Positions 8,374 to 16,119 of a DNA stretch of 64,000 nt are shown here, piece by piece. The translations under genes were made by a program, and so were the position numbers. Numbering within the stretch: position 1 is the stretch's first letter; every line of letters starts with the position of its first letter. The notes below the pieces were generated by a model. That model did not search any database. It was not told the DNA's origin and saw only the letters and a program-made list of their open reading frames with translations. This DNA is from a phage, in sequence record OR896157.1; one strand, 5' to 3'.

Positions 8374-9936
8374 ATGAAAAAGATTAATCCGTTAGTAGAA
8401 AAATGGACTCCGCTGCTTGAGAACGAAGCACTGCCTGAAATCGTTGGTGCTGGTAAAAAAGCTCTGATTGCAAAAATCATGGAAAACCAGGAATCAGCTA
8501 TTAAAACTGAACCTGCATTCCGTGATGAAAAAATCGCTGAAGCATTTGGTTCGTTCCTGACTGAAGCAGAAATTGGTGGTGACCACGGTTATGATGCTCA
8601 AAACATCGCTGCTGGCCAGACATCAGGCGCAGTAACTCAGATTGGACCAGCTGTTATGGGCATGGTACGTCGTGCAATTCCTAACCTGATTGCTTTCGAC
8701 ATCTGCGGTGTTCAGCCAATGAGTTCTCCAACCGGACAGGTATTCGCTCTGCGTGCTGTTTACGGTAAAGACCCTCTGGCCGCTGGTGCTAAAGAAGCAT
8801 TCCACCCAATGTACGCTCCAGATGCAATGTTCTCTGGTCAGGGTGCTGCTCAGAAATTCGCTCCTGTAAAAGCTGCTGACGTTCTGACTGTTGGTACTAT
8901 CGTAGTTCACGATTTCGCTGACGTTGGTCGCGCTTACTTCCAGGTTGCTGAAGGTTTCACCGTAGACGCTGGTGCTACCGATGCTGAAAAACTGGATAAA
9001 GCAGTTAAAGCTGCTGAAGAAGCTGGTCAGCTGGTAGAAATCGCTGAAGGTATGGCTACCTCCGTAGCTGAACTGCAGGAAAACTTCAACGGTTCTACTG
9101 ATAACCCATGGAATGAAATGGGCTTCCGTATCGATAAGCAAGTTATCGAAGCTAAATCTCGTCAGCTGAAAGCTCAGTACTCTATTGAACTGGCTCAAGA
9201 CTTACGTGCTGTTCATGGTATGGACGCGGATGCTGAACTGTCTGGTATTCTGGCTACCGAAATCATGCTGGAAATCAACCGTGAAGTTGTAGACTGGATT
9301 AACTACTCTGCGCAACTGGGTAAAACCGGTATGACTCAGACCGTTGGTTCTAAAGCTGGTGTATTTGACTTCCAGGACCCAGTAGATATTCGTGGCGCTC
9401 GTTGGGCAGGTGAAAGCTTCAAAGCTCTTCTGTTCCAAATCGATAAAGAAGCTGCTGAAATCGCACGTCAGACTGGTCGTGGTGCTGGTAACTTCATCAT
9501 CGCTTCTCGTAACGTAGTTAACGCTCTGGCAGCTGTTGACACTGGCGTTACTCCTGCTGCTCAGGGTCTGGGTCAAGGCTTCAATGCTGATACCACTAAG
9601 ACTGTGTTCGCAGGTATTCTGGGCGGTCGTTATAAAGTATACATCGACCAGTACGCTCGTCAGGACTACTTCACCATTGGTTACAAAGGTGCTAACGAGA
9701 TGGATGCTGGTATCTACTACGCTCCATACGTTGCTCTGACTCCACTGCGTGGTTCCGACCCGAAAAACTTCCAGCCGGTCATGGGGTTCAAAACCCGTTA
9801 CGGTATTGGTATCAACCCGTTTGCTGATAGTGCATCACAGCAGCCGAATGCTCGCATTCAGTCTGGTATGCCTTCTATCGTCAACTCCGTTGGTAAGAAC
9901 GCGTACTTCCGTCGCATCTGGGTTAAAGGTCTGTAA
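8374..9936 (+). CDS. 23: major capsid protein gp23
   Basis: 520 aa (T4 gp23 521 aa); T4 order 22-23-24. Confidence 0.97.
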   Translation: MKKINPLVEKWTPLLENEALPEIVGAGKKALIAKIMENQESAIKTEPAFRDEKIAEAFGSFLTEAEIGGDHGYDAQNIAAGQTSGAVTQIGPAVMGMVRRAIPNLIAFDICGVQPMSSPTGQVFALRAVYGKDPLAAGAKEAFHPMYAPDAMFSGQGAAQKFAPVKAADVLTVGTIVVHDFADVGRAYFQVAEGFTVDAGATDAEKLDKAVKAAEEAGQLVEIAEGMATSVAELQENFNGSTDNPWNEMGFRIDKQVIEAKSRQLKAQYSIELAQDLRAVHGMDADAELSGILATEIMLEINREVVDWINYSAQLGKTGMTQTVGSKAGVFDFQDPVDIRGARWAGESFKALLFQIDKEAAEIARQTGRGAGNFIIASRNVVNALAAVDTGVTPAAQGLGQGFNADTTKTVFAGILGGRYKVYIDQYARQDYFTIGYKGANEMDAGIYYAPYVALTPLRGSDPKNFQPVMGFKTRYGIGINPFADSASQQPNARIQSGMPSIVNSVGKNAYFRRIWVKGL

Positions 9937-13838: not shown

Positions 13839-13893
13839 TACTTTATCCTACAGTGAAAGTTGTTGGTATAATACCACTCTCTAGAAAAAGCAA

Positions 13894-13913
13894 AAGGAGC
13901 CCGAAGGCTCCTT
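13894..13913 (-). terminator. C(UUCG)G hairpin terminator downstream of hoc
   Basis: Plus-strand AAGGAGCC-CGAA-GGCTCCTT, i.e. UUCG loop in minus-strand RNA; followed on the minus strand by TTGCTTTTT. Confidence 0.6.
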
Positions 13914-15317
13914 TTAATAGATGATGCCAGCTTCTAAAGCTGAACGATGAACAATACGTCCATTCCGTGATTCTTGCACATCAACTTCTGGATAATCATC
14001 TAGCATTTTAGCTAGTGTATATCGGTGCAAGTAATAATCGCTGTCGGTGTCATCAAGTTTCCAATCTTTTCCTGCGACAGTCATTTCTTGGATTTCATCC
14101 ATGACCCACCAACCACACCAGATATAGGCTGTTCCTCGGAATGGCAGAGGATGAATATACGGAAGTTCTCCATCAGGGGCAGGAGCTACCCTTTTAGTAA
14201 TAGTTACATCACCAGTTGTAGTGACTGTAACAGGAGTGTAATCTTCTGCGGAAACATCAACAGAAACACCAATCACTTGGGACCCTATATCAGACGTGTC
14301 AATCACTAAAGTGCTAGTAGAACCTTCTACAGGAGAACCATCTTTAGTCCAAGAATAAACCCCAGTTGCACCTTCAGGAGCACCGATAACATTGGCTTTA
14401 AAAGACGCCTCAGACCCCTGCTCGGTCGTAATAGACTCAGGAGTCAAAGTAACTGAAACCCCGCTCATGGTCTTTTTGGTAATCGTTACATTACCGGTTT
14501 TAGTAACTGTAACGGGTTTATAATCTGGAGCAGAAACAACAGCAGAAACCTCAATTGCCTGCGACCCGATAGTGGATGTATCAATTTCTAGCGTACTTGT
14601 TGAGCCTTCTATAGGAGAACCGTCTTTGGCCCATGAGTAAGCTACAGATGCTCCCGCCGGCGCTCCAGTAACATCGGCTTTAAAAGATGCTTCTGCTCCC
14701 TTTTCAGCGGTAATTGAACTAGGCGTCAGAGTAACAGAAACACCACTCATGGTCTTTTTAGTGATGGTTACGCTAGCACCTTTGCTTACAGTCACTGGAT
14801 TGTAATCTGGTGCAGAAACTGTTGCTTCACAATTCAGAGTATAATTAGCCTCTGCTGACTCAGTTATGGTAATCGTTTTAGCAGTCTGACCTTCAATAAC
14901 GACAGTACCACGCTTCCAAACATAAGCAATGCTTGCACCTTCTGGAGCACCAACAACGTTAGCCGTAACTACCTGAGACTGGCCAATTTCTTTAGAAACA
15001 GAAGTCGGGCTCAAAGTTAAAGTAATCGCAGGCATAGTTTTGTTCTGAACTGTAAGAGTGGTTTCTGCCTCAGCAGTTTCTGCCTCACCCTCTGCTGGGG
15101 TAACAGTAGCAACTACTTTAACAGTCTTACTGCCGGCAGGTCCTGCAGCAACATAATTCATAGCTGCGGTGACAGAAGATTGTTTTACGCCATTTACTGT
15201 CCATACAAACGTTTCTGTGCCTTCAGCTGCGGCTCCAGAAGTTGTTGCAGTAAAATTGGTTGTTGCTCCAATGACTGCCGAAGCAGCCAAAGGAGCAATA
15301 GATACGCTATAAGCCAT
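13914..15317 (-). CDS. hoc: Hoc, highly immunogenic outer capsid protein (decoration protein with Ig-like domains)
   Basis: 467 aa; C-terminal domain ...APAPDGELPYIHPLPFRGTAYIWCGWWVMDEIQ... matches T4 Hoc capsid-binding domain as recalled; repeated Ig-like modules. Confidence 0.9.
   Translation of the reverse strand: MAYSVSIAPLAASAVIGATTNFTATTSGAAAEGTETFVWTVNGVKQSSVTAAMNYVAAGPAGSKTVKVVATVTPAEGEAETAEAETTLTVQNKTMPAITLTLSPTSVSKEIGQSQVVTANVVGAPEGASIAYVWKRGTVVIEGQTAKTITITESAEANYTLNCEATVSAPDYNPVTVSKGASVTITKKTMSGVSVTLTPSSITAEKGAEASFKADVTGAPAGASVAYSWAKDGSPIEGSTSTLEIDTSTIGSQAIEVSAVVSAPDYKPVTVTKTGNVTITKKTMSGVSVTLTPESITTEQGSEASFKANVIGAPEGATGVYSWTKDGSPVEGSTSTLVIDTSDIGSQVIGVSVDVSAEDYTPVTVTTTGDVTITKRVAPAPDGELPYIHPLPFRGTAYIWCGWWVMDEIQEMTVAGKDWKLDDTDSDYYLHRYTLAKMLDDYPEVDVQESRNGRIVHRSALEAGIIY
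14205..14768 (-). repeat. in-frame tandem duplication (2 x 282 nt) encoding two about 80 percent identical 94-aa Ig-like modules within hoc
   Basis: Protein residues 184-277 and 278-371 both begin TITKKTMSGVSVTLTP and align over their full length. Confidence 0.8.
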
Positions 15318-15326
15318 AGGTGTTCC

Positions 15327-16082
15327 TTATTTTAAAGTTACAAATGAAGAATTACGTGTTTCACGAATCATAACAGACCCGTTTCTTTTGATGTAATAAA
15401 TTAAACTGAACAGTGTCTGGTGTGCTGATGGGTGTCCAAACGATGTTGGACGAGATTTCCAATCAGGATTGTCTTTAATCCATTGGTAAATCCACCAAGG
15501 AAGAGTAACATATCCTGGATTCTTACCTAACAATTGGGTGTTTGGACTAAAGTTTTCAGGAAGTTCAACAATTTCTTCATTGTTAATAATTTTAACAGCC
15601 TTATCCATTTCTTCATTAAACTTTTCTTGGGTGATTGCAGTCACTGGAATAGTATGAACTTTATCATCTGCAACTGTAATCACGGAATCACCGATTGGGG
15701 CTTCAAGAATAACGCCTTTAACCGGGTCCATTGGCTTACCAAAATGAGGGTCGATATCAGTTACTTTCACTTGTGGCGCATCAGAAGATACAGAATCAAT
15801 CAATAGACGAGCTTCTTCTTTAGCCTCATCTTTAAAAATAGCAGTGCCTTTGGCCTCGTCGTCAGCTTGAATAAGGTCATAGATTGAAAGACCGTCATTC
15901 TGCTCTGGCATGGGTTCATTAGCAAGTTTGGCCAATTCGACTTCAAGGTCAGCGACCATATTGTCAAAGGCTTTAGTTTTCTTCAGCTTGATGCCGAAGG
16001 TTTCAGCGTACTCGGCAAGCTTTTCTTTGGCTTCTTTTTTCTCAAGTGCACCGATTTCAGCAATATAATCTTTATCTAACAT
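15327..16082 (-). CDS. inh: Inh, inhibitor of prohead protease (head protein)
   Basis: 251 aa from first ATG (track ORF extends 22 codons upstream); T4 position between hoc and uvsW. Confidence 0.75.
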   Translation of the reverse strand: MLDKDYIAEIGALEKKEAKEKLAEYAETFGIKLKKTKAFDNMVADLEVELAKLANEPMPEQNDGLSIYDLIQADDEAKGTAIFKDEAKEEARLLIDSVSSDAPQVKVTDIDPHFGKPMDPVKGVILEAPIGDSVITVADDKVHTIPVTAITQEKFNEEMDKAVKIINNEEIVELPENFSPNTQLLGKNPGYVTLPWWIYQWIKDNPDWKSRPTSFGHPSAHQTLFSLIYYIKRNGSVMIRETRNSSFVTLK

Positions 16083-16111: not shown

Positions 16112-16119
16112 TATTTATA
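16112..16119 (-). promoter_or_regulatory. T4-type late promoter TATAAATA for inh/hoc (divergent from the uvsW promoter)
   Basis: Plus strand reads TATTTATA, i.e. TATAAATA on the minus strand, about 30 nt upstream of inh ATG. Confidence 0.55.

Follow-up and report, generated by a model that had tools for sequence, protein, structure and literature searches.

Inter-genus import as the best explanation for the Ig-like domain array of a Karamvirus-type Hoc protein

How did the hoc gene of the phage sequence record OR896157.1 come to encode two adjacent and closely alike Ig-like modules, and are these the trace of a recent duplication? Through Hoc, T4-like phages face mucus, bacterial surfaces, and the immune system, and the protein serves as a display platform. 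In T4, one Hoc monomer occupies the center of each gp23 hexamer, and the protein is dispensable for growth. A preliminary description of the DNA analyzed here, a stretch of 64,000 nucleotides to which we refer as the window, had proposed that the gene was expanded by a recent in-frame tandem duplication of one Ig-like module.

The gene product is homologous over its whole length to T4 Hoc (PDB 5vf3_Z, 376 aa; E = 7e-150). T4 Hoc aligns to it twice, once between query residues 1-282 and T4 residues 1-282, and once between query residues 209-467 and T4 residues 114-373; domain 3 of T4 is therefore present twice in OR896157.1 Hoc, that is, in one extra copy. The alignment bears out that the 467-aa gene is hoc, and that it exceeds its T4 counterpart by 91 aa through one extra in-frame Ig-like module. 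The preliminary description had placed the two modules at exactly the coordinates of M3 and M4 in Table 1. Its module count was right in part: a diverged module does precede the pair, but a fourth Ig-like domain, at the N terminus, had been left uncounted.

Table 1. Features of the hoc locus and segments of the mosaic, in coordinates of the window
Feature	Positions	Strand	Remarks
hoc coding sequence	13914..15317	minus	467 aa plus stop (TAA at 13914-13916); only long open reading frame over the interval
Ig-like domain 1 (D1), aa 1-89	15051..15317	minus	all-beta in the AF2 model, pLDDT 82-93
Ig-like module 2, aa 90-183, allele type A'	14769..15050	minus	match to the module profile
Ig-like module 3 (M3), aa 184-277, type B	14487..14768	minus	Pfam I-set at 195-248
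Ig-like module 4 (M4), aa 278-371, type C	14205..14486	minus	Pfam Ig_3 at 288-341
C-terminal capsid-binding domain (Ct), aa 372-467, Karamvirus type	13917..14204	minus	aligns to T4 Hoc
inh (prohead protease inhibitor)	15327..16082	minus	directly upstream of hoc; aligned with Inh of EnA02, KP185, and L008
T4-type late promoter motif TATAAATA	16112..16119	minus	pattern search; upstream of inh-hoc
Terminator-like hairpin, GGAGCC-TTCG-GGCTCC plus T run	13891..13916	minus	overlaps the hoc stop codon
Jiaodavirus-like tract, about 1.2 kb, in Karamvirus backbone	about 14220..15436		mismatch profile, informative sites
Segment closest to EnA02	above about 15440		0-3 mismatches per 40 nt
Segment closest to AShe-2020a	15440-15001		0-2 mismatches per 40 nt
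Segment closest to KPV15	15000-14761		0-2 mismatches per 40 nt
Segment closest to AShe-2020a and KP185	14760-14241		0-4 mismatches per 40 nt
Segment closest to EnA02	below about 14240		0-2 mismatches per 40 nt

Both Pfam matches (I-set and Ig_3) are above the cut-off. An AlphaFold2 (AF2) model of Hoc, built on an alignment of 26 sequences, consists of four all-beta domains, with pLDDT values of 82-96 over residues 1-371, followed by a C-terminal alpha/beta domain modeled at low confidence (pLDDT 39-66). Against the PDB, the top Foldseek matches to the model are multi-Ig chains from Sidekick, Dscam, ICAM-5, and NCAM, together with RB49 Hoc (3shs, E = 2e-10). The Ct domain is near-identical to residues 277-373 of T4 Hoc, including the Trp-rich/aromatic YIWCGWWVMDEIQ. 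By analogy with T4 Hoc, the protein would be located at the gp23 hexamer centers. A fiber longer than that of T4, as suggested earlier, is a reasonable expectation: it would surpass the 18 nm of T4 by one Ig domain, or roughly 4-5 nm. The Ig domains may provide weak adhesion to mucin or bacterial surfaces.

The gene lies between inh and a DUF2774 gene, as it does in relatives, and its position between the uvsW side and the gp24-gp23 side is conserved. It is probably co-transcribed with inh. The late promoter motif upstream of the two genes is one of 13 matches found by pattern search in the window, where 3.4 are expected, and by analogy with T4 it would work as a promoter. Within inh, a segment of 36 nt (15582-15617; 12 aa, the EEMDKAVKIINN region of Inh) is present in the window, in L008, in VIPECLUMC02, and in Jiaodavirus, and absent from EnA02 and VPA32; the difference resembles a lineage-specific deletion between short NEE repeats. 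We considered it as a second imported patch and rejected this reading, since the deletion is of EnA02 type and the segment occurs in VIPECLUMC02 as well as in Jiaodavirus. A search of the 64-kb window by tblastn found no second Hoc-like anchor domain, of the kind reported for PG7 (PMC10385173), and no tRNAs were found in the window.

A profile built from the three 94-aa modules resolves every homologue into D1, a number n of modules, and a C-terminal domain; D1 itself matches the profile weakly in relatives. When the Ct domain alone was searched against 1.84 billion representatives, we obtained 130 family members, and the anchor is C-terminal in nearly all of them. Their N-terminal extensions are equivalent to 0-15 modules, most often two or three. 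From a protein search against 5.8 billion proteins, we classified 127 homologues, typing each 94-aa module against four references (A and A' for position 2, B for M3, and C for M4). Their lengths fall into classes of 373-377, 467-472, and 563-565 aa. The architectures were D1-A-B-C-Ct (n = 77, e.g., KP185), D1-A-C-Ct (n = 29, e.g., VPA32), D1-A'-B-C-Ct (n = 4: the window, its exact match P0005, P0006, and Salmonella phage SG1), D1-A'-C-Ct (n = 4, including KPV15 and EnA02), D1-A-A'-B-C-Ct (n = 4, P0001-P0004; A' below 80% identity to the reference in three), and, once each, D1-A-B-Ct (P0093), D1-A-B-B-Ct (P0082), and D1-A-A'-C-Ct (P0079, with A' below 80% identity to the reference). The stacked B-C pair is found in KP185, AShe-2020a, and PMBT63, and in about 80 protein clusters, and Hoc proteins with three, four, and five Ig-like domains coexist in the Jiaodavirus clade of Klebsiella phages. 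For Jiaodavirus, the four-module form is thus largely shared by relatives (81 of the 127 homologues are of the D1-A-B-C-Ct type), which speaks against a duplication made in OR896157.1.

At the protein level, M3 shows a median identity of 90% to the third modules of other four-Ig Hocs and M4 one of 96% to the fourth modules, and the cross comparisons give 74-78%. M4 is the orthologue of the last Ig domain in three-Ig Hocs (median 93% amino acid identity), and M3, of type B, is the module that is "extra" relative to T4 and Karamvirus Hoc; M3 is a paralogue of its neighbor M4. At the DNA level, D1 is 100% identical to that of Jiaodavirus KpV477, and AShe-2020a is essentially identical. Module 2 is 96.1% identical to module 2 of KPV15, and 80-84% to those of KP185 and EnA02. 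M3 is 92.9% identical to M3 of KP185; for the sole third module of the three-Ig KpV477, the figure is 95.4%. The best DNA matches of M3 are KpV477 and AShe-2020a at 96.7%, and all Karamvirus records stay at or below 85%. M4 and its KP185 counterpart share 96.5% identity, and the only third module of KPV15 is 90.8% identical to M4. The B and C modules of the window are each orthologous to modules of the KP185/PMBT63 type, that is, to the four-Ig subtype of Jiaodavirus, from which the window differs in that its Ct domain and both flanks are of Karamvirus type. This makes the gene a recombinant between genera and not a simple member of that subtype.

We mapped the mosaic (Table 1) from pairwise alignments in 40-nt bins and from modules aligned in register; a multiple DNA alignment misplaced gaps in the repeats. 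In the 14 kb surrounding hoc, the window shares 97% identity with Karamvirus phages such as EnA02 and PG7, and the flanks of the tract match Enterobacter phage EnA02 at 98-100% and Jiaodavirus at 50-85%. Within the tract, the comparison with EnA02 gives 2-19 mismatches per 40 nt. Informative sites divide into 319 Karamvirus-like (K) and 5 Jiaodavirus-like (J) outside the tract, and 31 K and 98 J inside it (Fisher P = 1.4e-64); most of the K sites within the tract fall in module 2, where the right comparator is KPV15. The 5' junction maps to the interval 15436-15423, within the final ~35 codons of inh, so that the 3' end of inh falls within the tract. At the 3' junction, the change from J-type (SAEDYTP) to K-type (TTTGDV) residues occurs at about 14235-14219, where module 4 ends, and from GELPY to its end the Ct domain is identical to EnA02 and AS6. 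A Karamvirus-type Ct is found in two of 85 four-Ig proteins, only those of the window and P0005, and in 17 of 17 Karamvirus-type records with a matching hoc, the match is a contiguous three-Ig gene of 1122 nt; all the Karamvirus hoc genes matched in these 17 records or inspected have two or three Ig domains. Over the whole gene, the best single relative reaches 91% identity in DNA and 95% in protein, and the exact donor is absent from the collections. Within the tract, AShe-like and KPV15-like segments again form a mosaic.

We propose that homologous recombination copied about 1.2 kb, comprising the 3' end of inh and the four Ig modules, from a hoc gene of Jiaodavirus type. The imported tract would have replaced the resident Karamvirus Ig array, and the resident capsid-binding domain and the flanks would have been kept. 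By parsimony, we infer that the transfer went from Jiaodavirus to Karamvirus. As far as can be judged from sequence, the four-Ig array arrived by recombination, not by duplication in this genome. That the OR896157.1 gene is a functional hoc, and that its best explanation includes the inter-genus import of the Ig array, we rate at a probability of about 0.85.

Elsewhere in Karamvirus, VIPECLUMC02 (L010, 5915-6736) encodes a two-Ig Hoc of 273 aa, whose Ig part is only about 40% identical to that of the window and whose last 26 residues are identical to those of the window. The Karamvirus hoc locus looks like a replacement hotspot with fixed ends.

A four-Ig hoc could also be the old Karamvirus state, retained here and reduced in other Karamvirus by the loss of module B. 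The history of the gene in Karamvirus is indeed not simple, since the single third module of EnA02 (L001) is intermediate, with an N-terminal half nearer to C and a C-terminal half nearer to B, and two-Ig alleles also occur in this genus. However, the tract is 97-100% identical to Jiaodavirus, whereas adjacent genes differ by 15-50% between the genera, and so sharp a discontinuity in identity points to recent exchange and not to retention. Moreover, a deletion by unequal crossover between B and C would leave a chimera with a B head and a C tail, and EnA02 has the opposite. We therefore regard retention as unlikely. Domain 3 of T4 displays the same C-head and B-tail tendency as the third module of EnA02; because the two share this pattern, the intermediate form may be nearer to the ancestral module.

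An artifact of assembly, either an expansion of the repeat or a chimeric contig made from a Karamvirus and a Jiaodavirus in one sample, might produce a mosaic gene of two genera with junctions in conserved sequence, as is seen here. Against this, M3 and M4 share no exact word longer than 14 nt, which is too little to mislead an assembler, hoc has an intact reading frame, and its changes follow the pattern of purifying selection. In addition, run ERR10682451 yielded a Logan contig (L008) that matches the window at 99.68% identity across 13,387 nt, with 43 substitutions. It encodes an identical Hoc (P0005), with one silent change inside hoc and with the same junctions. As a separate run and assembly thus yields the same gene on a backbone with 43 differences, we consider an artifact very improbable, and the repeat seen in the preliminary description is real. 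Relative to L008, 21 of the 43 substitutions fall in a stretch of 620 nt in the major capsid protein region (window 8610-9228), a cluster that suggests another small recombination patch.

The similarity between M3 and M4 is itself unmistakable. Self-comparison of hoc recovers the adjacent 282-nt repeats described earlier, at 74% identity. When a module was compared without gaps with all other registers in the window, 72 +/- 8 positions matched, compared with 207 for M3/M4 (binomial P = 2.5e-64); the preceding module comes second with 122 matches and corresponds to the more diverged residues 90-183 (about 40% identity). Tandem Repeats Finder missed the hoc repeat, both with default settings and with lowered thresholds, since the divergence of the copies is too great. 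The two modules are equal in length, adjacent, and in frame, and both begin with the same 16 residues, TITKKTMSGVSVTLTP. They agree at 72 of 94 residues; the earlier figure of about 80 percent thus conveyed correctly that they are closely alike, but the measured 76.6% is slightly lower. Their DNA is identical at 207 of 282 nt (73.4%), with 75 differences.

The pattern of substitution between the two modules speaks for considerable age. Of the 94 codons, 81 agree at the first position, 80 at the second, and 46 (49%) at the third, and by the Nei-Gojobori method we obtained a dS of 1.52, a dN of 0.14, and an omega of 0.09. Between the window and KP185 (Jiaodavirus), the corresponding values are 1.1, 0.039, and 0.035 for the C-terminal domain of Hoc, and 2.0, 0.138, and 0.068 for uvsW. 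Synonymous sites in M3/M4 are near saturation, and the divergence of the pair is comparable to that of genes between two phage genera. The differences, silent ones included, are evenly spread, even under the identical start of the modules. Recent gene conversion as the cause of these identical starts was rejected, since silent differences occur throughout that segment. Both modules have been maintained under purifying selection, and the pair is an old one and no recent product. If one Ig module had recently been duplicated in situ and in tandem within this lineage, as claimed in the preliminary description, this would account for two modules adjacent, in frame, of equal length, and with the same beginning, but the low DNA identity with a dS of 1.5, the 93-97% identity of each module to a distinct module of other phages, the importation of the array, and the different look of real recent cases leave such a duplication next to no credibility.

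Two such cases were found among the homologues. In the four-Ig Hoc P0082 (L011, 2001-3407, and L012, 538-1944; two ENA metagenome assemblies), the third and fourth modules are both of type B and 98.9% identical in DNA, with three differences that all lie within the first 9 nt; a recent duplication or gene conversion has this appearance, and the pair of the window does not. The Klebsiella phage TNG87 (PV402692.1; L005, 3001-4518) encodes a Hoc of 505 aa with an in-frame tandem duplication of 111 nt within module B, whose copies are 99.1% identical. This repeat would interrupt the Ig fold, which leaves a genuinely recent duplication or an error of assembly as its source.

The import of the array into Karamvirus leaves the origin of the B-C stack to be considered. 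It may have arisen by duplication followed by long divergence, or by the stacking of two pre-existing alleles, and the data fit either. The three-Ig Jiaodavirus Hocs of KpV477 (L014, 946-2070) and KPV15 (L007, 3001-4125) carry a third module of type B and type C, respectively, so that B and C behave both as alleles replacing one another and as a stacked pair. A and A' are likewise single alternatives in some Hocs and stacked in five-Ig ones. In the latter (P0001, 563 aa, at L013, 2001-3692, and P0002-P0004, 565 aa), A and then A' precede B and C, and the genes lie on Jiaodavirus-like contigs of about 166 kb; for modules 2 versus 3 of P0001, which differ in length by one residue, only protein-level figures were used. 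Since B/C and A/A' occur both singly and stacked, we infer that arrays would grow by out-of-register recombination between alleles and shrink by the reverse process. The crossovers would take place at the conserved module junction (..KKTMSGVSVTL..) in co-infecting phages with different module alleles. A broader reading, which we put at slightly less than even odds, is that of a cassette system, in which the Hoc alleles of T4-like Klebsiella and Enterobacter phages (A/A' at position 2, B/C at position 3) undergo stacking, exchange, and loss, and arrays cross between genera while the cognate anchor is kept. The window would then be a transfer caught in the act, and the apparent duplication a stacking of alleles.

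The main result is a corrective one: what looked like a fresh domain duplication is an old and widespread module pair. The Ig array of Hoc would move between phage genera as a unit, and the capsid anchor would stay in place. The number of Ig domains varies among close relatives, which have three, four, or five of them and, in VIPECLUMC02, two; mucosal persistence and antigenicity could therefore differ among near-identical isolates of therapeutic Klebsiella and Enterobacter phages. The interest of the locus is modest, and it opens no new biological question.

OR896157.1 Hoc is an ordinary member of a known, modular family. It shares with T4 Hoc the same Ct with the aromatic YIWCGWWVMDEIQ, D1, the second domain (D2), and the neighborhood (inh, uvsW, and the gp24 side). 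T4 Hoc (PDB 5vf3, 8t1x, and others) has three Ig-like domains, whereas the window has four, with domain 3 doubled as B and C. The Karamvirus Hocs (EnA02, PG7, AS6, 373 aa; VIPECLUMC02, 273 aa) have the same backbone, the same Ct from GELPY on, and the same downstream terminator region; they differ in having three or two Ig domains, with modules that reach 82-88% identity in DNA, as opposed to 96-100%. Among Jiaodavirus, a Hoc-like protein of 468 aa with four Ig-like domains and a capsid-binding domain has been described in PMBT63, a phage that is retained on mucin (PMC13435897). This Hoc (P0037) is 91% identical to that of the window and has the arrangement D1-A-B-C-Ct, but its module 2 is the A allele and its capsid-binding domain is of Jiaodavirus type (ending in IIYP, 94% identical). 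From a global alignment, the "extra" domain of PMBT63 has been placed at Lys109-Glu209 (PMC13435897); the orthology of the modules, in contrast, shows domain 3 to be the doubled one. More generally, Hoc has been described as combining a conserved C-terminal anchor with between 1 and 10 Ig domains in a string of variable length, 10 being found in Serratia phage Muldoon (PMC10385173). Such multi-Ig Hocs follow the same principle as that of the window, but they are much longer, and their Ig part is only distantly related. A four-Ig Hoc is thus common and already published; what would be specific to OR896157.1 is the route of import between genera, with the phage's own capsid anchor kept.
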